Assembly (NCBI GenBank): GCA_024679065.1
Contig: JAGIQG010000014.1
Coordinates: 27,528,001 to 27,592,000 of the forward strand
DNA from: Sphyrna mokarran
Lineage: Eukaryota
Direction of reading: 5' to 3'
DNA: 64,000 bases
In this document: positions 1,064 to 50,759 of the stretch, piece after piece
Numbering within the stretch: the stretch's first letter is position 1
How the letters are laid out: each line of letters begins with the position of its first letter
Translations under genes and position numbers: made by a program
Notes under the pieces: generated by a model
Told to the model about the DNA's origin: nothing
What the model saw: the letters and a program-made list of their open reading frames with translations, nothing else
Database searches by the model: none

Positions 1064-3498
1064 TTGTGTGCCAGCATACAGGAGGATGTGAATAGGGAGG
1101 TCAGGGATAAGGTTTCTAGGTCGCAGCAGTATAGTGGCAAAGGGGAGGGTGGTTTGAAGTGTGTATACTTTAATGCGAGGAGCATACGCAATAAGGTGGA
1201 TGAACTTGCAGCCTGGATTGGTGCTTGGGACTTCGATGTTGTGGCCATTTCAGAGATGTTGATAGAGCAGGGGCAGGAATGGTTGTTGCAGTTTCCGGGG
1301 TTCAGATGTTCCAGTCAGAGCAGAGGTGGTGGTAGAAGAGGGGGAGGAGTGGCATTGTTAGTTAAGGACAGCATTACGGTGGCAGAAAAGACGTTTGATG
1401 TGGACTTGTCTGCTGAGGTAGTGTGGGCTGAGATTAGAAACAAGAAAGGAGAGGTCACATTGTTGGGAGTTTTTTATAGGCCTCCAAAAAGTTCCAGAGA
1501 AGTAGAGGAAGGGATTGCAAAGTTGATCCTGGATAGGTGTGAAAGTAACAGGGTAGTTGTAATGGGGGACTTTAACTTTTCTAATATCGATTGGAAAAGC
1601 TATAGTTCAAGTACGTTAGAGGGGTCAGTTTTTGTTCAATGTGTGCAGGAAGGTTTCATGACTCAGTATGTAGATAGGCCAACAAGAGGTGAGGCTATAT
1701 TGGATTTGGTACTTGGTAATGAACCAGACCAGGTGTTAGACTTGGAGGTGGTGAGCACTTTGGTGATAGTGACCACAATTCGGTTACGTTTACCTTAGTG
1801 ATGGAAAGGGATGGGCGTATACCGAATAACAGTAGTTATAGCTGGGGGAAAGGTAATTATGAGGCTATTAGGAGAGATTTAGGATGCATAGGGTGGAGCA
1901 GGATATTGCAGGGGCTGGGGACATCTGAAATGTGGAGCATATTTAAGGAACAGCTTCTGCATGTCCGTAATAAATATGTACCTGCCAGGCAGGGAGGAAG
2001 TGGTCGAGTGAGGGAACCATGGTGTACTAGGGAAGTTGAATCTCTGGTGAAGAGGAAGAAGGAGGCTTACATAATGATGAGATGTGAAGGCTCAGTTAGG
2101 GCACTGGAGAGCTATAAATTAGCCAGGAAGGAGCTAAAGACAGAGTTGAGAAGAGCTAGAAGAGGATACGCGAAGACTTTGGCGGATAGGATTAAGGAGA
2201 ATCCTAAAGCTTTTTACAGGTATATAAATAATAAAAGATTGGTTAGGGCAAGATTAGGGCCAGTCAGAGATAGCAGTGGGAAGTTGTGCGTGGAGCCTGA
2301 GGAGATAGGAGAGACACTGAATGACTATTTTTCGTCAGTATTCACGCAGGAGAAAGACAATGTTGTCGGGGAGAATACTGCGATACCAGGTTGTAGACGG
2401 GGCAGGATTGAGGTTCATAAGGAGGAGGTGTTAGCGAATCTTGAGGGTATGAAAATTGATAAGTCCCCTGGGCCAGATGGGATTTACCCTAGGATTCTCT
2501 GGGAGGCTAGAGAGGAGATTGCAGAGCCTTTGGCTTTGATCTTCATGTCGTCGTTGGCTACAGGTATAGTGCCGGAAGACTGGAGGATGGCAAATGTTGT
2601 CCCTTTGTTCAAAAAGGGGAGTAGGGACCATCCTGGAAATTATAGACCGGTGAGCCTGACTTCTGTTGTGGGCAAAGTCTTGGAAAGAATTATAAGGGAT
2701 AGGATTTATAAGCATCTAGAGAGAAATAATTGATTAGGGATAGTCAGCACGGTTTTGGAAGGGTAGGTCATGCCTCACAAACCTTATTGAGTTTTTTGAG
2801 GAGGTGACCAAAGAGGTAGATAAGGGTAAGGCAGTTGATGTAGTGTGGGGAGTTGTAGACAGCGAGGATGGATGTTACAGTTGCAGAGGGACATAGATAG
2901 GTTGCAGAGCTGGGCCGTGAGGTGGCAAATGGAATTCAATACGGATAAGTGTGAGGTGATTCACTTTGGTAGGAATAACAGGCATATGAAATATAGGGCT
3001 AATGGAAGGACCCTTAATAGTGTTGTCGAGCAGAGGGATCTTGGGGTACAAGTACATAGCTCTTTGAAAGTTGGCACCCAGGTTGATAAAGTTGTTAAGA
3101 AGGCGTACGGTGTGTTAGCTTTTATTGGTAGAGGGATTGAATTTAGGAGCTGTGAGGTTATGTTACAACTGTACAAAACTCTGGTGCGGCCGCACTTGGA
3201 GTATTGCGTACAGTTCTGGTCGCTGCATTATAAGAAAGATGTGGAAGCATTGGAAAGGGTGCAGAGGAGGTTTACCAGGATGTTGCCTGGTATGGTGGGA
3301 AGGCCTTATGAGGAAAGGCTGAGGGACCTGAGGTTATTTTCATTAGAGAGAAGAAGGTTACGCGGTGACCTAATTGAGGCGTATAAGATGATCAAAGGAC
3401 TGGATAGGGTGGATAGTGAGAGCCTTTTTCCTCGGATGGTGATGACCAACACGAGGGGACATAACTTTAAATTAAGAGGTGGTAGTTATAGAACATAG
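1064..3498 (+). pseudogene. Disrupted CR1 ORF2 (APE endonuclease + reverse transcriptase)
   Basis: ORFs 1064..1798, 1798..2733 and 2845..3498 are consecutive frameshifted pieces. The DFSKAFD-GVPQG-FADD core is missing at ~2846. Confidence 0.9.
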
Positions 3499-3950
3499 AA
3501 CATAGAACATAGAACATTACAGCGCAGAACAGGCCCTTCGGCCTTCGATGTTGCGCCGACCATATAAAAGCATGACCCTCCAAACAAAACCATTCCCTTC
3601 TCTTCCATAAACTTATCAACTAACCTCTTAAACGCCACAACTTGGCGCATCTACAACTGCCGCAGGCAGGGCATTCCACTCCCTAACCACCCTCTGGGTA
3701 AAGAACCTACCTCTGATATCCGTCCTATAACTATCACCCCTTAAATTTAAAGCTGTGTCCCCTCGTGCTAGCTTTCTCCATCCTAGGAAAAAGGCTATCA
3801 CTGTCCACCCTATCTAAACCTCTAATCATCTTATATGCTTCGATAAGGTCTCCTCTTAGCCGCCTCTTCTCTAACGAAAACAACCTCAAATCCCTCAGCC
3901 TCTCTTCATAAGACCTGCCCTCCATACCAGGCAACATCCTGGTAAACCTC
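3488..3950 (-). mobile_element. 5'-truncated CR1 3' end inserted antisense into the first CR1
   Basis: Starts with (ATAGAAC)n, the reverse complement of the tail. Its reverse complement is nearly identical to 36026-36484 (RFTRMLPGMEGRSYEERL...). The host resumes at AGGTTCTTTAC (3951). Confidence 0.95.
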
Positions 3951-4152
3951 AGGTTCTTTACACAGAGGGTGGTGAGGGCGTGGAATGCCCTGCCTGCAGC
4001 AGTTGTGGACTCGCCTACTTTGGGGGCATTCAAATGGTCGGTAGATAGGCATATGGATGATATTGGAATAGTTTAGGTTAGAGGGTCCACTGGCAGGCGC
4101 AACATCGAGGGACGAAGGGCCTGTACTGCGCTGTAATGTTCTATGTTCTATG

Positions 4153-7704: not shown

Positions 7705-8165
7705 TCATATGGTACAGTAAAGGCCCTTTGGCCCATTGAGTCTGCACTGACAATAACTACCATGAAAACCACGTTAATCCCATTTTCCTGCACTTCAACC
7801 ATATCCTTGAATGTTACAATATTTTAAACGCTCATCTAAACATTTTTTAAAGATTGTAAGTTTCTGACCTCCACTACCTTCCATTCCAGAGTCCTACTAC
7901 CCTCTGAATGAAATATCTTTTTGTAAAATCCTCTCTGAATCTCTGAGTGTCTTTAGAAGACAGCCTCTCAGGGAAAACGAAGTGTGGAATTCTCTGATAC
8001 AGTAGAAATTCCATGTTTTAGGGTAAGGAGCAGGAGATTCAGAGGGGATTTGACAAAAAGACTTTTCATTCAAAGAGTGGTAGGACTCTGGAATGCACTG
8101 CCTGGGAAGGTAGTGGAGGTCAGAAACTTTAAAAAATGTTTGGATGAGCACTTGAAGTATGTTGT
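7705..8165. repeat. Two CR1 3'-end fragments in inverted orientation (minus ~7705-7942, plus ~8010-8165)
   Basis: Both carry TTCATTCA.AG.GT.GTAGGACTCTGGAATG...GGTAGTGGAGGTCAGAAACTT. The minus copy retains the GGCCCTTTGGCCC stem-loop and tail. Confidence 0.8.
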
Positions 8166-22289: not shown

Positions 22290-22492
22290 AGTACTGCAGA
22301 TGCTGGGATCTGAAACAGATATAGAAAAATGCTGGAAAACCTCAGCAGGTCTGACAGCATCTGTGGAGAGAGAATAGATGTAACGTTTTGAGTCTAGATG
22401 ATCCTTTATCAGACCTTTGGAGATCTATCCTTTCTCCACAGATGCTGTCAAATCTGTTGAGATTTTCCAGCATTTTCTGCATCTGTTTCAGA
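22290..22492. repeat. Inverted pair of Penelope pseudo-LTR fragments (hairpin)
   Basis: TCTGAAACAGAT...ATGCTGGAAAA.CTCAGCAGGTCTGACAGCATCTGTGGAGA and its near reverse complement at 22432-22492. Decayed hammerhead core on the minus strand at ~22381-22413. Confidence 0.75.
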
Positions 22493-25066: not shown

Positions 25067-26249
25067 AGCTGTATTGCAGAACACTGTGATCCTGAGGACA
25101 GTATTTCAAATGCTAATGGCAACATTACAGTGCTTTACAACCCCTAATCAGAACAATATCATGACACAATGATAGAAGATTCATCATCTCTCTTGTCTGG
25201 GATGGAATTGAAAAAAAAGACATTCAAATTCACCATACCTATATTCAGGTTTATCTTGTCTCCAAGAGATTGGCCACTATCTGGGTGTTCTCAGCTGGAG
25301 ATCAATGGAAGGAGTTGCTTGATTACTGTGTTCCCAACCATTGTTTTTAGGATCCACCAAAAACTAGAATGTGGGGTTAATGAAGTCAGACAATTGATTT
25401 GCTTTGTGTTATAGGTTGCTATTGACAATAGGACTATTGCATTCCTGCATTGATAGCAAACTATAAATATAGCGTTATCTTAACTATGTGTTTCAATATA
25501 TTTCAATCGGAACAAAGTATTATTTGATCTGAATCTGCAACTCCAGAATCAGAGTTCCAAGATAAACAGAATGTAGATTCAACGGCCTTTTTATTGGTTA
25601 CATTATGTGTTTATTAAACAGTCTGTTTTTGTACAGGGCCTTTTCTACGAACATCATCTCAGCGTCTGTCTGCTGAGTGGTATCATAGCTTTTACTTCAC
25701 TGGCCATTGATTTCTGTTGTGTGTAAGCAATTACTCACAAAGTCCCTTCCAGTAGCCAAGAAATCTGTTTGGAATTGCAATTGAAGAATATATAAAGGAT
25801 ATTTCAAAACAGACACTCGGATCTAGCTCATTGTTTCACCTGAGATTCTTGTTACTCTGATATGAAACAAATACTAAGCCTGCAGCAGAATCACAGATAA
25901 GATATGTTGAGTTTTTTTAAAAAAAGGCCTCACTCATCATCTCTTATTCCTTCTGTTATTCACAGTACTCCAGGGTATGCTTCTTTTATTGTTATGCAAA
26001 TCACCCACTATTATGCACTTTGCTTCTGAGTTTTTATTGTTGCGTTGCTTCTTGTTATTGACATAATTGCCCTTTGCTGTGATTAGAAAGTACAGCCATG
26101 CTTCTTACTGAATGCACATGGAGGAAATGATTCAATAAAGCCCCAATTCTACAACCAAAAATATTCAAATTGTTGAGGCAAAGCTAAAATAGCCTTGATA
26201 AATCCCAAATACTGTCAATTCTATAGTACTTCTGACTCTCTACTCCTAA

Positions 26250-26478
26250 GGTGTAGAGATGCCGGCGTTGGACTGGGGTCAACTCAGTAAAGTTTTGCAA
26301 CACCAATTTTAAATCCAATCAATTTATTTGATAGTAAATCCATGAGCTTTCAACACTATGTTCTGCAGATCAGAACACTGCATTTGCCTGATGAAGGCAC
26401 AACATAGTGTCGAAAGCTCATGGATTTACTATCAAATAAATTGGTTGGATTTAAAATTGGTGTTGCAAAACTTTACTG
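26250..26478 (-). mobile_element. Palindromic non-autonomous Penelope-derived element with 13-bp TSD
   Basis: 78-bp inverted arms 26285-26362 / 26401-26478 (2 mismatches). Minus-strand tail CCCCAGTCCAACGCCGGCATCTCTAC. TSD TCTCTACTCCTAA at 26237-26249 and 26479-26491. Confidence 0.85.
26384..26422 (+). ncRNA. Minimal type I hammerhead ribozyme core
   Basis: CTGATGA-A-GGCAC-AACATA-GTGTC-GAAA-GC-TC. Stem II pairs, stem III is the palindromic AGCT, stem I pairing is poor in this copy. Confidence 0.55.
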
Positions 26479-27367
26479 TCTCTACTCCTAACCCAGAGAA
26501 AGCAGTCAGATGTGGCTTTAATGCTCCGAACTTGAAAATTATAATTACCAGTCTAATATGACATTGAAAGTTTGAAGTTTTGGGACGCGACTGAATGCAT
26601 TCATACTGTAACTAGTGTTGTATATTCTATATATCAGATATATGCAAATACGCCATTAATTCCTATGAGTGAAGGAACTTTATTTATAGAAGTTTTATAC
26701 AATACTTTAAAATGTCTGCTCCATGCTTATAACTTTGTCTTCTAGCTCTTTTTACTTACCTTGATTCACACCCAGACTTGCCATTCAAACATTGTGAACA
26801 TCAACAACTAACAGACGGATATAATTAGACACAGAACAATTGAACACTATAATAAGTGCATCATCTGTATCATCCTCCTGCCACATCCAAAATGCTGAGT
26901 GCCCCACACATATTGTTATGATCCCTATATAGATCTCTAACTTTTCAAAAGAGATAATTACCAGATTTAAATGAATCACATGACAAGATGTCATGTTCTG
27001 TGACTACGACTATAACAAACAAACTAAAATCAACATTGCCTACGAACTAACGTTAATTCAATTAATGCTCCACATTCCATATACTCAATAGAACAATCCA
27101 AAGTTACTCCCGGTTCCAAAGAGATTCTCTCTCTCACTGCGTCCAGGGTTTCTGAATCAGAACAAGAGAGTGTGTAAGTCTAGACAATATCAATCCAGTT
27201 CCTTCTGTCTCAAGTATTTCATATGGCACCTGGGTTTCAATAGGACTTGACAAGGACACTGGTCCCAATGAATACAAGGTCTTGTCAGCTTATCACTGGA
27301 CAGAACTAATAGCAGGTCACATGATCCACTTTGCCTTGAATTATAAAGAATAATTTAAAACACAATG

Positions 27368-33499: not shown

Positions 33500-36484
33500 A
33501 GGGGGCTTTAAACTGATTCGGGGGGGGGGGGTGGGATCCTAAGTAGTTGGGGTGCTAAGAGGGATGAGAGTAAGGGGGTCATAGAGGAAAGCTGTAAAAC
33601 ACAGCAGCATACGGGTGGGGTAGGGCATGGTTTGAAATGGTATACTTTAATGCAAGGAGTATTCGCAATAAGGGGGAGGATTTGCAGCTTGGACCAGTAC
33701 CTGGAACTTCGATGTTGTGGCCATTTCAGAGACTTGGGTAGAGCAGGGACAAGAATGGATGTTGCAGGTTCCGGGGTTCAAATGCTTTAGTCGGAGTAGA
33801 GAAGGAGGTAGAAGGGGGGGAGGAGTGGCATTATTAGTCAAAGACTGTATCACAGTGACAGAAAAGAAGTTTGATGAGGACTTGTCTGTTGAGGTAGTAT
33901 GGGCTGAGATTAGAAACAGGAAAGGAGAGGTCACCCTGTTGGGAGTCTTTTATAGACCTCCTAAAAGTTCTAGAGAGGTTGAGGAAAGGATTGCAAAGTC
34001 AATTCTGGTCAGGAGTGAAAGTAATAGGGTAATTGTTATGGGGGACTTTAACTTTACTAATATTGATTGGAATAGCTATAGCTCTAGCTCGTTAGAGGGG
34101 TCAGTTTTCGTACAAAGTGTGCAGGAAGGTTTTTTGACTCAGTATGTAGATAGGCCAACTAGAGGTGAGGCTACATTGGATTTGGTGCTGGGCAATGAGC
34201 CAGACCAGGTGTTAGGCTTGGAAGTTAGTGAACATTTTGGTGATAGTGACCACAATTCGGTTACGTTCACCTTAGTGATGGATAGGGATAGGCATGAAGC
34301 TGGGGGCAGTAGTTATAGCTGGGGGAAGGGTAATTATGAGGCCATCAGGAGAGAATTAGGGTGCATAGATTGGACTAGGAAACTACAGGGACTGGGAACA
34401 TCTGGAATGTGGAGCTTATTCAAGGAGCAGCTGCTGCGAGTCCTTGATAAGTATGTCCCTGTCAGGCAAGGAGGAAATGGTCGAGTGAGAACCTTGGTGT
34501 ACGAAAAAAGTTGATTTGCTGGTTAAAAGGAAAAAGGAGGCTTATGTCAGGATGAGGCTTGAAGGCTCGGTTAGTGCAATGGATAGCTATAGATTAGCCA
34601 GGAGGGAGCTAAAGAGTGAATTGAGGAGAGCTAAGAGAGGACACGAGAAGACTTTGGCTGATAGGATTAAGGAGAATCCTAAAGCTTTCTTTAGATATGT
34701 TAAGAATAGAAGATTGGTTAGGGCAAGATTAGGGCCAGTCATAGACAGCAGTGGGAAGTTGTGCGTGGAGCCTGAAGAGATTGGAGAGGCACTGAATAAA
34801 TATTTCTCTTCGGTATTCACGCAGGGTGATGTAAATGTAGTTATGGAGAACACTGAGGTACAGGGTAGCAACTGGAAGGACGAAGTAGATAGGGAGGATG
34901 TGCTAGATATTCTCGAGGGTTGAAGTTGGATAAGTCCCCTGGGCCGGACGGGATTTACCCTAGGATTCTCTGGGAGGCAAGAGAGGAGATTGCAGAGCCT
35001 CTGGCTCTGATCTTCAGGTCGTCGTTGGTTACGGGTGTGGTTCCGGAGGACTGGAGGATAGCGAATGTGGTCCCGTTGTTCAAGAAGGGGAAGAGAGACC
35101 TTCCAGGGAATTATAGGCCAGTGAGTCTTACTTCTGTGGTGGGCAAAGTGTTGGAGAGAATAATTAGGGATAGGATTTATAGTTATTTAGAGAGTAATGA
35201 ATTGATTGGAGATAGTCAGCATGGTTTTGTGAAGGGTAGGTCGTGCCTTACTAACCTCATTGAGTTTTTTGAAAAAGTGACTAAGGAGGTGGATGGGGGT
35301 AAGGCGGTTGATGTGGTATATATGGACTTTAGTAAGGCGTTTGATAAGGTGGCCCATGGAAGACTTCTGCAGAAAATGCAGATGTATGGGATAGAGGGTG
35401 ATTTAGCTAATTGGTTAGGAATTGGCTAGCAGATAGAAGACAGAGGGTGGTGGTTGATGGGAGATATTCATCTTGGAGTTCGGTGACAAGTGGTGTACCT
35501 CAGGGGTCTGTTTTGGGGCCCCTGCTGTTTGTAATTTTTATAAATGATCTGGATGAGGGTATTGAAGGATGGATTAGTAAATTTGCAGATGACACTAAAG
35601 TCGGTGGAGTGGTAGATAGTGAAGAGGGGTGTTATAGTTTGCAGAGGGACTTGGACAAGTTGCAGAGCTGGGCCGAGAGGTGGCAAATGGAGTTTAATGT
35701 GGAAAAGTGCGAGGTAATGCACTATGGCAGAAATAATAAATGTGTAGAGTATAGGGCAAATGGTAGGATTCTTAGTAGTCTAGATGAACAGAGGGATCTT
35801 GGTGTGTATGTGCATAGATCCCTGAAAGTAGGCAGTCAGGTCGAGAAGGTTGTTAGGAAGGCATATGGAGTCTTGGCTTTTATTGGTAGAGGGATTGAAT
35901 TTCGGAGCCGCAACGTCATGTTGCAACTGTACAAAACTCTAGTGCGGCCGCACTTGGAGTATTGTGTGCAGTTCTGGTCCCCACATTATAAGAAAGATGT
36001 GGAGGCATTGGAGAGGGTACAGAGGAGGTTTACCAGGATGTTGCCTGGTATGGAGGGCAGGTCTTATGAGGAGAGGCTGAGGGATTTGAGGTTGTTTTCG
36101 TTAGAAAGGAGGCGGCTAAGAGGGGACCTAATCGAAACATATAAGATGATTAGAGGTTTAGATAGGGTGGACAGTGATAGCCTTTTTCCTAGGATGGAGA
36201 AAGCTAGCACGAGGGGACACAGCTTTAAATTAAGGGGTGATAGTTATAGGACGGATATCAGAGGTAGGTTCTTTACCCAAAGGGTGGTTAGGGAGTGGAA
36301 TGCCCTGCCTGCGGCAGTTGTAGATGCGCCAAGTTTGGTGGCGTTTAAGAGGTTAGTTGATAAGTTTATGGAAGAGAAGGGAATGGTTTAGTTTGGAGGG
36401 GCATTGCTTTTTATATTGGTCGGCACAACATTGAAGGCCGAAGGGCCTGTTCTGTGCTGTAATGTTCTATGTTCTATGTTCTAT
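33500..36484 (+). mobile_element. Young CR1 (HER1-type) LINE, 5'-truncated at the ORF1 stop
   Basis: GGGGCTTTAAACTGA ORF1 end, complete APE and RT motif series, 3'UTR GGCCGAAGGGCC stem-loop and (GTTCTAT)3 tail at 36464-36484. Confidence 0.97.
33630..36391 (+). pseudogene. CR1 ORF2 (APE + RT) broken by frameshifts
   Basis: ORFs 33717..34514, 34516..34923, 34920..35429 and 35411..36391 contain GDFN, SDH, QHGF, DFSKAFD, GVPQGSVLGP, KFADD and LERRRLRGD. Confidence 0.93.
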
Positions 36485-38176
36485 TTCACCTCTCCTCACC
36501 TGGTCATAACAGAAATTTGGTGGAGAATATCTGGGAGAGATCCCACAGACAATGAATGAACAGAATAGGGAAAGTAAATTTTATCCAGAAATAATTTGTT
36601 TTTTTAAACAAACTAACTGCTGCAGGTTTTCTTTCATTTACAATACCAAAATGCAAAAACGTTCACTCTCTAAATCAGTGTTTTTCTAAAACAAATTGAA
36701 ATTGCTTTTTGTAAAGGCTCTATCCCTCAAAGTTGAAAAGTGAACCTAAGGAATTGGAGTTAGAGTTTTGCCCAAAAACCAAGAAACAGGAACTTTTAAA
36801 ACTTGTGGCCAAACAATTGATTTGGGAACGTGGAGGAATTGTAATATACAGCCTAGCTTTAATGGAATTACAGCTAGAAATGAAATGGCTCTATTCCCAA
36901 ACAAGACAGGAAAATCAGAGGGGAAAAAGAAAAAGAGGAAAGGTAAAAAGAAAGAGGGGAAAGAAAAAGAGAGATGTTACAGATAGGAGAACATAAATTT
37001 AAACAGCTCTGATTTCTCCTCTCACCAGCTGTCTGCAAATAAATAGGTGTTTTGATTTTTTTGATTTCCCACTTTAAAAGTGGCGATGTATTTCCCAAAC
37101 CTTTCAGTTTGGCAAAATCCAATCCTCTATTAATAACAGCGCCACAAATTTGAGATCAGATAAACTAAGAGGGTTTCTTATTTAATACGCACACAAATTG
37201 CAGAAAAGGGGTTTTGTCATGTCCATCCAATTTTACATTCGAACCATAAAAGAGGAACGAGGGAAAAAAAGAGGTACAGGACAGAACCACAATAAAATTT
37301 ACATTTATTGTCTGATGTGACTCCAGTGCCGAGAACCAAATGTCCAATGTCATATTCATTCAGAAGTTGGTAGGCTGACTTTTGCAGGTGATTATTTGTC
37401 TAGAAGCGAGGAATTCTATGATGGGAGATGACGTATAAATGAATTAGTCTTGAAAACACAAATGCAGAAGTTCAGCTGTTAGAGTAGTTCAGTGTAGATG
37501 AGGGCTAGGCAATTTACCTGGACAGAGCTCTCTCTGCTGCTATCTGTTTGGTATAATGGTAGACAAAGGCAGGTTGCTTGCCTGAAGTCCTGCTTCTCAA
37601 CTGAGGTTAAACAGTGACTGAAGATAAAATTTAAAAGCTGTATAATGAAAGGAATTAAGACAATTTAAATGTCACTCATGATAGGGTAATTTTGGATTAA
37701 TCTATTCAGTTAACAAGGCCCCTGGTTGAAACATATTGTGTTTTGCAGCTGGTAACAGAAGGGCCATTAACACAACATTGGAAATTAGCGGTGGGATTTT
37801 ATATCCTCATTCATTGCAAAATCACACCCGAGGTCAACAGACCTGCCTACTGCAATTCCTGTGGCAGGTGGGGCGGTAAAATTAGGAGTCATGAATACAT
37901 CTAACTTTGCCCAAAGTTGGCTGTGCAGATTTATCATCTTCTGTCCATCGCATTGGCTTGGCTGGAGTATTTATACATTGCAAGATGTGTTACGTTCCAG
38001 AGGGTTTGATATGTTAATCATAGTCCACTTTCAAACTGCTCAAAAGCTTCTAGAAACAGGTGTTTGTGATTATTACAGCTGTTTTATTAGCCCAGCAACT
38101 GTCCATTGTAAAATGTAATTTTATAAAGCAGCCAGGCTGATACATAGGGATAGATCACTGTGTCCATAAAACGCAG

Positions 38177-38409
38177 TAAGAATTTAGCAACACCAATTTT
38201 TAATCCAACCAATTTATTTGATAGTAAAATTGCGAGCTCTCAACACTCCGTGTCTTCCTCAGGCAAATGCAAATGGCATTTGCCTGAGGAAGACACAGAG
38301 TGTTGAAAGCTCGCAATTTTGCTATCAAATAAATCGGTTGGATTAAAAATTGGTGTTGCTAAATTCTTACTGAGTTCTTACCACCCCAATCCAACGCCGG
38401 CATCTTTAC
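38177..38409 (+). mobile_element. Palindromic non-autonomous Penelope-derived element with 14-bp TSD
   Basis: 97-bp inverted arms 38174-38270 / 38276-38372 (4 mismatches, 5-nt loop; the first 3 nt overlap the TSD). 37-nt tail ...CCCCAATCCAACGCCGGCATCTTTAC. TSD TCCATAAAACGCAG at 38163-38176 and 38410-38423. Confidence 0.9.
38280..38316 (+). ncRNA. Minimal type I hammerhead ribozyme
   Basis: TTGC-CTGAGGA-A-GACAC-AGA-GTGTT-GAAA-GC-TC-GCAA: stem I TTGC/GCAA, stem II GACAC/GTGTT, palindromic AGCT stem III. Predicted cut after C38312. The mirror copy on the minus strand has GAGA instead of GAAA. Confidence 0.7.
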
Positions 38410-38479
38410 TCCATAAAACGCAGCAGTAGCTCAGGTTTGAGTACCAAGTTATTCAAGGTTGCTGACTTAATCCTCCAGT

Positions 38480-42399: not shown

Positions 42400-45300
42400 A
42401 GACATGAAGCAATGGGCTGCATGCGGGAATAAGTTCAATTCTAATGTGTAGCCGTTGACACACATTACGCAGTAGCTGCTCTACACGTAATATAATCACA
42501 TTTCGGAATTGAAGAAGTTTGTGTATTCGTTGGATAGCACCTACAATGCTGAAATTCAATGAAGTGGTGACACCACAGGTAAAGACTGAACAGGCACAAA
42601 GGAGATGGGTGACCACCAGGTAGAGTAGACGAAGGCAGGTAATGCAGGAGACCTCTGTGGCCAACCCTCTCTTTAACAGATATACCATTTTGATATGTTG
42701 GTGGGAAAAGCATCTCAGGGAATAGTAGTGAAAGCCAAGACCCATAGTGTCACAAGAGGTGAGCAGCTGAGAACAGGCAATGAAGAATATCATTCATTAT
42801 ATTGTATAAGATCTATTCAAAATAAAGCAAACTACACAATGCTTCATTTTGGATCATGTTCAAAAGAGGGAAAGAAGAAGAATGGCAAGGTTATAGTGAC
42901 AAGAGATTCAACAGTAAGGGGAACAGATAGGAACTTCAACAGCTGCAAAAGAGACTCCAGGAAGGTGGGTTGCCTCCCTGGTACCAGATCAAGGATGTCT
43001 CAGAATGCCTACATTACATTCTGAAGGGAAAGGGCGAACAATCAGTGGCTGTGATACTTATCAGTACCAACGACTTGGTTAAAAAGAGGATGAGCTCTTA
43101 CAAGCAGAATATAGGAAATTAGAAGGACACCAATTTAAAAAGTAGGATCTCAAAGATAATAAGGTGAAGATTACTATCAGTGTCACATTCTAATGCGAGT
43201 AAAAATAACAGAGGTATACCAGATGAATACATGACTGGAGAAATGGTGTAGGAGGAAGGGATTCAGATTCCCAGGACATTGGGGTTGGTTCTGGGGAAGG
43301 TTGGGCTATAATAAGCAGGGTGGGTTGCATCTGGGCAGGACCAGGACCAAAATCTTAGGATGTAGGGTGTTTACTAGAGTTATCGGGAAGGGTTTAACCT
43401 GGAACACAATTGGGAATAGGAGCCTAAGCATGGAGTTGGAGGAGGAAGAAACAAGGATAGAAATAAAAGACAGAAATGTAAGATGCAAAAGTGGAAAACA
43501 GAAAAAATAAGGGCAATAAATAAACGGTGCCAAAATGCACAATAAATCTAAGATGGCTAACAAGGTTGAAAATACAAGTCCAAAGACTGTGTGTTTTAAT
43601 GTGCATTTATATCCATCTACACTGATAATTCATCTACTTTATTTGTAGATGAATTAACAGTGCAGCTGGATATAAATGGTTACAATGTAGTTGCAATTAT
43701 AAAGACATGGCTAAACGATTACCACGGATGGGAATTGAACATTCAGGAATATTCATTATTTAGAAAGGACAGATAAAAAGGGAAAGGAGGTGGGGTAGCA
43801 TTGTTAGTAAAGGAAGAAATTAATGCAATAATGAGGAAAAATATTGGCTCAGAAAATTATAATTATGGAACTTATATGGACAGAGATAAGAAACATCATG
43901 AGGCAAAAAATGTTGTTGGGGGACTGTCTGTAGGCCCCCAAACAGTGATGTAAGGGAAGGTGGTAAACAAAAAAATCAAAGATGCATGTAATAAGGATGC
44001 AACTGAAATTATGCGTGACTTTAATTTACAAATAGATTGGTCAAACCAAACTAATAATGATATAGTGGTGGAGAAATACATTTGTGATTTTTTTTAGACC
44101 AATAGAACCAACCAGAGAAGTTTAAGTGTATTTATTAGTGTCACAAGAGCAGGCTATTCTAGACTGGTAAAGTGCAATGAAAAAGAATTAATTAACAATC
44201 TTGTGAGGAGGCCCTTGGGGAAGGTGACTGAAATATGATAGAATTTTTCATTAAGGTGGAGAGTGAAGTAGTCAAATCTGAAACTAGAGTCCTGAATTTG
44301 AATAAAGGGAATTAAAGGAGTTGATGGTGGATAGGTGATGGTTCATATTTTAAAAATGTGTGCATGAATTACAATTATTCACTCCTGTCTGGCACAAAAA
44401 TAAAAGTGGAAAAGTGGCTTAACCATGAATTACAAAATAAATTAGGGATAATATTAAATCTAAAGAGGATACATATAAAATTGCCAGAAAAAAGCAGTTA
44501 GCCTGATGATTGGGAGTATTTTAGAATTCAGCAAAAGAGGACAAAAGGCAAAAAAAAAAGAGTATGACAGTAAAATTGCAGGGAACGTAGACACTGACCG
44601 TAAAAACTTCTATAAATTTGTGAAGATTAACACAAATTGTGAAAATTTAAAGACAAAGACTCCTTTCAGTCAGGAGCCAGAGAAATTACAATGGAGAACA
44701 AAGAAATGGCAGAATAATTCAACACATATTTTGATTCTGTCTTCATAAAAGAGGGCACAAGTAACAGAAATGTTAGGGAACCAAGGATCTAGTGAGAGGA
44801 GAGAAAGGAAGGAAATTGTTACTAGTAAGAAAATGGTGCTGAGTAAATTAATAGAATTAAATGCTAACAAATCACCTGATAATCTACCACCCACAATATT
44901 AAGGAAGTGCGCTAAAAATACTAGATACATTGGTGGTCATCTTCCAAAATTCTACAGACTCTGGAGTAGTTCCTAAAGATTGAAAGGTGGCAATGGGAAT
45001 GCCACTATTCAGAAAGGTAGAGAGAGAAAAAGAGAACTACAGACCAATTAACCTGACTCTTCAAACAATGATAATACAGAATACCAGAAAGAAAGAGAAT
45101 CTGGTAACCTGACATGACGACAATAATCTCTCCCACAATGTCAACAAAATGAAGGAGATTGTCACCAACTTCAGGAAGCATAGTGGAGGACGTGCCCCTG
45201 TCCATATCAATGGAGATGAAGTCAAATTGGTCGAGAGCTTCAAGTTTCTAGGTGTCCAGATCACCAACAATCTGTCCTGGTCCCTCAATGCCAATGTTAT

Positions 45301-48660: not shown

Positions 48661-49298
48661 ACCCATCAGGTACATGGTACATACTCATGCAACTCAGCCT
48701 ACTCATATACTGCAGGAAAGGAAGTCCTGTAGCATTTGGCGAGACCATGCAGATGCTATGACAACAAATGAACAGATGGTGCGTGACAATTGCTAGGCAA
48801 GAGAGTCCCCTTCCAGTCAGGAACACTTCATTAGTCAAGGGCATTCAGTCTCTGATCTTCAGGTAAGCTTTCTACAAGGCAGCCTTCAAGACACATGAAA
48901 CCCAGAATCGCTGAGCAGAAACTATTAGCCAAGTTCTGGATGCATGAGGATGGTCTCAACCAGGCTCTTGATTCATGTTACACTACCTGCAACCCATATC
49001 GTTTGGCTTGGGCTGGCAAAATCCTACTAACTGTTCTGGTTTGAGACAATTCACATCTCATTAACCTGTGATTATCCTTCTCTCCACTTGCACTATCTGT
49101 ATCCGTAAAGACTTGATTATTATCTTGCAATTGTGTCTTTGTCTATATATGATGTGTTTGTGAAACTACCTCTCCACTCACCTGATGAAGGAGCAGCATC
49201 CAAAAGCTTGTGATTCCATATAAACCTGTTGGATTTTAACCTGATGTTGAAGCTTTTTACTGTGCCCACCTCTGTCCAACATCTGCATCTCCACATCA
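48660..49298 (+). mobile_element. Penelope-like element 3' part (GIY-YIG + pseudo-LTR + tail)
   Basis: HQVHGTYSC...CRKG....GETMQ.L.Q.MN....IARQE..LPV..HF.SQGHS.SDL.VS.LQG...IAEQKLLAKF..HEDGLN. The pLTR carries TCAC-CTGATGA-AGGAGCAGCATCC-AAAA-GCTT-GTGA (CpG-decayed hammerhead); tail TCCAACATCTGCATCTCCACAT. Confidence 0.88.
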
Positions 49299-50759
49299 TG
49301 TCTCCTGTGAAAAGCTTTGGGATGTGCTATTACTTAAAGGTGCTACATAAAGGCCAACTTTTTGTCTTTGTAGTTGTGGTGAACAATAGCTGGACTATGA
49401 CAGCCTGGTGGCGGGGGGACACTTATATTTATTAACAGCCTAATATGGGGCTTTTGAACCTTGAGCTGCTGGTCAATGTGCTTCAGTGCTTGAATATGGG
49501 ATCATTAGCCCTGGTGGCGTTCACAACCGAACTAATTGCCGGACGGTGATAACTTGGTGAAGGTGGCTACACTAATTCTGTATTATGATGTGATATGGAC
49601 TTCAGCCAGATTAGAATCAATAGACTGCAGATACTGAATCCTGCGGAAACTCAAATTCCCATTTTGGGTCTGCAGGAATAACTAGATCACCGACAAACTG
49701 AACGATCAATTGGCCGATAGTTTCTGTGAAACTCGTGTAAGCTGTGCAGTTTCATTCTGCCTCACCCACTTTTATTGTTCTCTATCGTAGCGGCTGCTGT
49801 GAAGTATGTAATTTAGGGAGAGTGAAAGGCAGACAGCAAAAGCAAAAATAAGATAAACAGAGAGTAACCACAAAAACCTGTAATCTGATGTACTCAGTAA
49901 TGAGTGAGGAGGTGTGTGTTACTTACTCTCGTGGGAAAACAAACTCAGCTAAGCCCTTCCCTGAACACACACAGCATTTCATTCATTAATACCAACACAA
50001 ACAAGAGGCAACAGGAACACACACACAAACCCTCAAGCTGAGACACAGAAAGGCATTGTACTGACACACTTTTCATTTATGTTATGTCTCCTGCTATGTA
50101 CTAACGCTGATTAAATGCCATAGCATTGGATGCAGAGATTCCCATCAGAAATAAGCTTCAAATCACTCACCTTTGCATTGTATCTATTAGCTTACCATGT
50201 AAGTTGATAACCTTTCCCTTAATGCAGGAGCATCCTTCTCTTAATGGCAATGATAGTTTGGTTACTTGTACAGATCAGGTGTTGCAGTAGATTGATGTAC
50301 ATTATTGGGAAATCTTGCCTCAGACTTGCAGGATTCCTACCATTCTAAAGTCTTGATCTTTCTCTACTATTCTTCCTTTGAATATTTGAAAAATTTGTTC
50401 ACTCTTGCAAACAGTGCTTCAATAACCTACTGAATTAAATTCCCTTCTAATTTCCTTCCCAAACTTAGTGGCGCTTTAAGGCAGATTCATCTATTTCCAT
50501 AGCTAGTAATTCCTGGAACAAGTTACCAGAGACTTATGGTTTGAAAGGGTGCCACTCAGTATGAGGTATGGTTGACTAGGAGTCTTCTTTGTTCTTAATG
50601 CCAGCCATTGGCATGTTGGAAGAATTCGGAGATTGACATTCAACCTGATAGGCCACATTACGAATGCATTTTCCTTGGCCGTCAAGTCCTTGACAACTTG
50701 ACTTTGCTATCTCCTCTCAACAATAGCACCTCTTAAGGATCAACAAGGTTATCTATCAG

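Follow-up and report, generated by a model that had tools for sequence, protein, structure and literature searches.

A palindromic hammerhead insertion in Sphyrna mokarran reads as two Penelope-like element stubs placed head to head

The insertion and its parent element

The window, a 64,000-nt stretch of Sphyrna mokarran DNA, carries a palindromic insertion of 255 bases at 26237–26491 (copy 1). It is flanked by a 13-bp target site duplication (TSD), the left repeat (26237–26249) matching the right (26479–26491) letter for letter, and the insert between the repeats is 229 bp long. From left to right, this insert comprises a Penelope 'tail' of ~35 nt on the minus strand (26250–26284), a tail-bearing arm on the same strand (26285–26362) and a tail-less arm on the plus strand (26362–26478). 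Both arms are the 3′ end (3′ UTR/pseudo-LTR, pLTR) of the same element, in opposite orientations. The tail-bearing arm is 5′-truncated within loop II of a hammerhead motif, lacks the hammerhead core and is 94% identical to the full-length copy L222; the tail-less arm starts ~25 nt upstream of the core and is 96.6% identical to L222. A single T at the junction (26362) is common to both, and an inverted-repeat comparison in the window finds 26285–26366 and 26397–26478 to be 96% complementary. The palindrome folds with z = −22, and none of 200 shuffles was as stable. The exact TSD, the palindrome and the hammerhead motif of the original prediction are all borne out. The left TSD together with the end of the tail next to it (26237–26259) folds into a small, imperfect hairpin; this target is similar to the tail of the element itself, perhaps by coincidence.

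A 22-mer of the arm has 37,176 exact matches (18,583 + 18,593) across the 2.77-Gb genome, and its reversed control has none. Longer copies extend upstream through the 3′ UTR into one open reading frame (ORF) that encodes a reverse transcriptase (RT) and, at the C terminus, a GIY-YIG endonuclease (EN). This ORF matches the Pfam families RVT_1 (E = 9e-10) and GIY-YIG (E = 3e-4; 21.5 bits, just below the cut-off of 22.6), and its homologues carry PF01541 (GIY-YIG). L222 (349–3300, minus strand) is a natural full-length copy whose unbroken ORF of ~890 codons suggests that the family may have been active recently; the window arms are 94–97% identical to it. The ORF contains the motifs ADKGG and YLIRCKKGCPEAWYIG, as expected of an EN+ Penelope-like element, and its RT–EN linker, CHSNLCKTC, fits the CX2-5CxxC motif of the Neptune/Nematis type. 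By this linker motif alone, the element is putatively of Neptune type, in a sense that leaves Neptune and Nematis unseparated. The best named homologues of the ORF come from sharks (83–87% identity), and a PDB sequence search with the ORF returned no match.

The layout of the family is also that of EN+ Penelope-like elements, with partial-tandem pLTRs, inverted truncated copies, a tail of 30–40 bp and a TSD. In tandem copies, the tail continues into the ORF start codon (L268, L284–L313), and pLTR fragments upstream extend as far as 1.47 kb into the preceding unit. Copy 1 is a dead stub from a widespread retroelement and an ordinary instance of an already published footprint, two Penelope stubs back to back, rather than a member of a mini-element family. 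Membership among the non-LTR retrozymes was also considered and rejected: these are tandem same-strand hammerhead repeats without a coding parent in cis, whereas here the arms are inverted and longer copies are continuous with the ORF.

An oppositely arranged relative from the same family, which had been noted near 38.2 kb, is present at 38163–38423 (copy 2), with its tail at the opposite side relative to copy 1. Copy 2 belongs to another subfamily and is bounded by TSDs at 38163–38176 and 38410–38423; its tail-less arm lies on the minus strand and its tail-bearing arm on the plus strand, the latter with an intact hammerhead motif (38284–38312, plus strand). The two arms show four differences, plus one beyond the arm end, in 101 columns, and one difference falls in the GAAA core. 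A motif scan of the 64-kb window detected only two hammerhead motifs, this one and 26388–26419 in copy 1.

Several other repeats lie in the window. An older fragment of a related Penelope-like element (48664–49299), comprising ORF end, 3′ UTR and tail, is ~72% identical to L222. A fold-back repeat with 54-nt arms (89%) at 22326–22476 has, by eye, an apparent decayed hammerhead near its centre and is probably a stub of a different Penelope-like family. More short inverted repeats occur at 43604–43678 and at 7882–8095, the latter of which we take to resemble a CR1-type LINE end. Two related long repeats (79–90%) with internal inversions, at 1200–4150 and 33680–36480, are probably CR1-type LINE copies.

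The hammerhead motif and the two arms

The motif scan and family comparison place a minimal type I hammerhead motif at 26383–26424 on the plus strand. The 5′ strand of stem I (26383–26387) leads into the core (26388–26394), an extra A (26395), stem II (26396–26411) and GAAA (26412–26415). A palindromic AGCT replaces helix III, and the cut is predicted after 26419, followed by the 3′ strand of stem I (26420–26424). The tail-bearing arm ends inside loop II, at 26362. It therefore offers no mirror to the 5′ half of stem II, and only the plus arm contains the core (26388–26419), so copy 1 is not a double hammerhead. In addition, an ATGG present in both arms breaks the first pair of stem I. No match to Rfam was found in the 64-kb window at gathering score.

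At the family level, sequence comparison points to the full set of minimal type I hammerhead features, namely a CUGANGA core, GAAA, NUH, stems I and II, and a palindromic helix III. All 20 stem II variants found at two or more loci keep 3–5 pairs, with A-U, G·U or G-C at pair 2. In an alignment of 34 of 45 candidate haplotypes, which required an intact core and omitted 11 that are mostly further CpG-type variants of those kept, stem II is 97.7% paired and stem I 83.5%. The covariation score is 0.332 versus 0.259 ± 0.015 (0 of 500 shuffles), with double changes at one pair against 1.3 expected, in a comparison that ignores kinship. Between copies 1 and 2, the stem II changes are one-sided (G·U to A-U, G-C to G·U). 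Selection on the fold had been proposed from these two copies; stem II pairing across subfamilies would fit selection in active sources, but this applies to the source lineage and not to copy 1 itself. The hammerhead appears to be a passenger in copy 1, its pairing having been maintained in the source lineage.

The arms of copy 1 are not identical: over 82 columns, two differences are unmirrored and a third lies at the junction. The differences in stems I and II that had been quoted between the window copies are real. The breakpoint supposedly shared at CAGTAA/TTACTG resolves family-wide into a range, in which the match of 95 tail-less arms to the element continues for 0–11 letters beyond TTAC, a figure that counts microhomology with the target; in copy 2, the CAG doubles as the end of the TSD. 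A shared centre was not recovered either, as centres differ in every copy inspected, among them all 60 short copies read, a set retrieved with the window copies as queries and therefore biased to palindromes.

Homogenisation of the arms within each copy, as put forward in the original prediction, is not supported. Arms look mirrored because both belong to one subfamily: among 92 pairs, both arms fall in the same subfamily class in 86, six pairs include an unclassified arm and none mixes two classes. After insertion, the arms mutate independently. Private non-CpG changes in 62 short palindromes affect one arm in 43 cases and are mirrored in three, and the private changes of 39 long subfamily-A pairs comprise 257 one-arm and 31 mirrored cases, 14 of the 31 coming from one locus. 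The nearest-neighbour yardstick used for private changes hides CpG mirroring, and CpG sites were retested with fixed motifs. CpG decay is about independent, with mirrored decay at six sites observed 1, 1, 5, 2, 1 and 8 times against 1.0, 0.9, 2.5, 1.2, 1.0 and 3.5 expected; the two sites in excess (5 versus 2.5; 8 versus 3.5) also vary between source variants. Relationships among arms, scored as nearest-neighbour counts rather than as a tree, agree with only part of the expected clustering. The nearest arm at another locus shares tail state 52% of the time, so arms do not cluster by side, and subfamily is shared; by locus, the partner arm is strictly nearer than every arm elsewhere for only 20 of 184 arms.

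Gene conversion between the two arms after insertion, which would keep each copy symmetrical, is very improbable on these counts. In its favour, both arms of copy 1 carry one and the same double CpG-type change (ATGG), and mirrored decay is slightly over expectation at two of the six CpG sites. Those two sites, however, differ between source variants as well, the other four follow expectation, and one-arm changes greatly exceed mirrored ones in the short palindromes. Moreover, arms at two other loci match the tail-less arm of copy 1 without a difference along the stretch compared, whereas its own partner is two letters off. The ATGG is a CpG-type change of the family GCGG/GTGG that is seen singly in many copies; it may be source-derived or the product of two parallel decays.

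Truncation, tails and templates

In samples unselected for centre, the partners of inverted pairs lie from 10 bp to >3 kb apart, and the copies form a continuous size series into the ORF. The private centres suggest that the palindrome arises at insertion, during replication. Either arm may be the longer one (10:9 and 12:10), and junctions fall at short palindromes in L281 and L283. At L099:1058–1287, ~230 nt of non-element filler lie between the arms of one TSD-flanked insertion. Truncation points are concentrated immediately 5′ of the hammerhead, where 34 of 117 arms in the C1 sample start −60 to −41 from the anchor, compared with 0–6 per 10 nt further upstream; many stubs therefore measure ~230–250 bp and share the same central motif. 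This hot spot appears weaker in subfamily A. A genome-wide check with two 17-mers gave 1,673 versus 2,721 matches, figures confounded by subfamily variation, and most copies of subfamily A extend across the hot spot.

A transcription start as the cause of the hot spot is unsupported for subfamily A, and upstream pLTR fragments begin anywhere from −1469 to +33. A splice acceptor at ~−60 was likewise rejected, there being no common exon ahead of the arms that start there. In the C1 sample, no spike marks the hammerhead cut site as a template 5′ end: nine of 117 arms (duplicates included) start at −12 to −5, and neighbouring bins are equally full. Among upstream pLTR fragments, one of 30 starts within 3 nt of the predicted cut site. 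This one is the fragment upstream of the full-length copy L268 (660–700; G000:C1 ~25,517,930). We observed no sign that cleavage sets template ends, in line with PMC11167929.

Within the leading 4.9 Mb of contig C1, 26 inverted pairs are flanked by a TSD, and every one has exactly one tail (two of them being one segmental duplicate); six further pairs in this sample lack a TSD, and two of these are one-tailed and four were scored tail-less. A second set of 33 places, picked from pattern lists by spacing alone, yielded 32 pairs, 29 with a TSD and all 29 of these one-tailed. Exactly one tail is thus carried by 55 of 55 TSD-flanked pairs in the two samples unselected for tail. Across all samples, 102 of 110 head-to-head pairs have a TSD and 101 of these are one-tailed, 62 of the 102 having come from tail-containing palindrome queries. 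TSDs were called by a length threshold alone (≥9 letters, with one mismatch allowed from 10). Unpaired arms split into 27 with and 26 without a tail, so that independent choice would leave one tail in half of the pairs. The end window of the tail-less arms agrees with the two start sites reported to bound the tail in vitro (PMC11167929). Our literature search, which had most subscription papers and all supplements outside its reach, turned up the layout and a proposal of self-priming, and no paper that counts the one-tail rule or demonstrates two templates.

The arms of one insertion often carry different alleles. Upstream of the hammerhead, common polymorphic sites outside CpG are discordant between the arms in 41 of 154 cases versus 207 of 10,915 at other sites, and a second set with sites fixed beforehand gives 39 of 188 versus 258 of 12,936. 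Transversion sites alone are discordant in 14 of 48 and, in the second set, 13 of 61. Pooled, 78 of 346 common polymorphic sites are discordant, against about 2% elsewhere; these long-pair statistics cover one subfamily group (A) only. Among the 39 pooled long pairs, 18 differ at two or more common sites and 16 at none. Pairs whose arms have different common haplotypes include L085, L099, L153, L228 and L270; in L099, the two arms inside one TSD have different stem II loops and differ along the whole overlap, including an indel. Of 17 pairs, only one has arms that are each other's closest match. Discordance nevertheless stays below a random draw and is almost nil near the 3′ end, with 1 of 33 at +23, 11 of 65 site calls at −103/−101 versus 27 expected, and 0 of 17 pairs near the 3′ end in the second set. 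Near-equal truncation points (symmetric junctions) occur in six of 39 long pairs versus 0.8 expected, and haplotypes are mosaic along the ORF.

Together, the one-tail rule and the arm discordance favour two-nick priming on two RNA units over fold-back. In the proposed mechanism, the GIY-YIG nuclease would make a staggered cut ~13 bp apart. One nick would prime at an outer start site and give the tail, and the other at an inner start site and give the tail-less arm. This would involve, probably, a protein dimer acting on two RNA units, which could lie on two transcripts or together on one tandem transcript, the latter because upstream pLTR fragments reach into the preceding unit. Both cDNAs would end early, often just 5′ of the hammerhead, and would be joined via microhomology or short palindromes. 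The two halves of such insertions are likely separate copies, often of two RNAs that differ slightly, and arms of one insertion would be alike because co-active sources are close kin. Since discordance is low and near nil beside the 3′ end, both cDNAs may instead start on one RNA and then switch template; such switching, or fold-back, may account for part of the insertions. On balance, we lean towards an asymmetric two-template machine, in which a dimer primes both nicks on separate RNA units, invariably using the tail site for one nick and the inner site for the other, and self-priming is not the main route. With greater confidence, copy 1 can be read as two 5′-truncated Neptune-type Penelope-like 3′ ends, joined head to head within a 13-bp TSD and likely reverse transcribed from both cut strands. 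Copy 1 itself is too short to reveal one template or two.

Fold-back (self-priming) is the main alternative. Here, a single cDNA, or in the proposal of PMC3846280 an antisense RNA, turns back and is copied into the second arm, with its end trimmed at the tail boundary. The excess of symmetric junctions, the 16 pairs without discordance, the near-total agreement at +23 and the palindromic junctions of L281 and L283 all suit this route, as do the few private variants that are mirrored (3 of 46 in short palindromes; 31 of 288 in long pairs, 14 of them from one locus). It cannot, however, yield arms with different common haplotypes, as found at two or more sites in 18 of 39 pairs, nor would it leave the partner closest for both sides in just one of 17. 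We therefore hold it to be unlikely, while it may hold for a minority of insertions. The original idea that one arm is templated from the other fares accordingly: a palindrome born in replication stands, and templating is possible for a subset, but many insertions have differing arm haplotypes.

Two-nick priming from a single RNA unit would require the haplotype differences to come later, via ectopic conversion from dispersed copies or at hypermutable sites. The genome does hold tens of thousands of near-identical copies, ORF haplotypes are mosaic and concordance peaks near the 3′ end. Yet discordance is also seen at transversions and at linked pairs of sites, the L099 arms differ over their whole overlap, indel included, and conversion leaves no sign even between adjacent arms, which makes this account distinctly improbable. 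Least credible of all is a non-autonomous palindromic mini-element or retrozyme, transcribed and spreading as a unit. The many copies of ~230–250 bp and the cluster of truncations immediately 5′ of the hammerhead (34 of 117 arms at −60 to −41) give it some appeal, but centres differ among otherwise near-identical copies, no non-palindromic centre is shared in the 60 short copies, and the size series runs continuously into the ORF. The head-to-head rather than tandem arrangement would also place two hammerheads on opposite strands. Two-nick priming on separate RNA units remains our preferred reading.

Relation to known systems

Penelope-like elements are the sister group of telomerase. In L1 twin priming, both nicks prime cDNA and an inversion results, as in the shark element; the two L1 pieces are non-overlapping parts of one RNA, whereas the shark arms overlap and share the 3′ region.

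Insertions with inverted pLTRs and a one-sided tail have been published for endonuclease-bearing Penelope-like elements (PMC3846280, PMC8557442, PMC2377424). Those elements share with the shark element head-to-head 5′-truncated copies, a tail of 30–40 bp at one end, a TSD and partial tandems, and those of PMC3846280 also share a tail that runs into the ORF start. They differ from the present case in that both copies here are only stubs, and the one-tail rule and arm haplotypes are counted here. PMC3846280 suggests self-priming, whereas the shark data favour two templates. PMC8557442 describes as an unsettled question how the inverted repeats and the tail on one side come about, and copy 1 is one data point in a large natural experiment on both. 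The layout is already known, and the side result on mechanism, with its one-tail counts and two-template signal, is a useful addition.

Work in vitro on Poseidon of Anolis shows cleavage and extension of both strands and two start sites, one at either boundary of the tail; the protein is predicted to form a dimer (PMC11167929). Poseidon resembles the shark element in that two start sites bound the tail, and its hammerhead is dispensable for insertion. The shark linker is CX4CxxC (Neptune/Nematis), unlike that of Poseidon, and the shark hammerhead lies ~130 nt upstream of the ATG, whereas the Poseidon hammerhead overlaps it (PMC11167929). Inverted copies receive no account in the available text of PMC11167929. 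The strict one-tail rule and arms of different haplotypes provide a sharp, cheap prediction for this existing in vitro system, and if the two-template machine is real, shark genomes with tens of thousands of pairs would allow it to be measured without an assay.

Minimal hammerheads of metazoan Penelope-like elements occur as opposite-strand pairs 100–700 bp apart (PMC4209133). The shark motif shares with them the extra base between 9 and 10.1, G10.1-Y11.1, a palindromic 15.2–16.2 in place of helix III and a variable stem II. Copy 1 differs in having a single core and a damaged stem I, and its ribozyme activity is putative. The animal non-LTR retrozymes (10.64898/2026.07.22.740005; PMC7229834) likewise have a type I hammerhead in a pLTR-related short repeat. 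These retrozymes are described as tandem same-strand repeats, whereas the shark insertion is an inverted truncation of a coding element.
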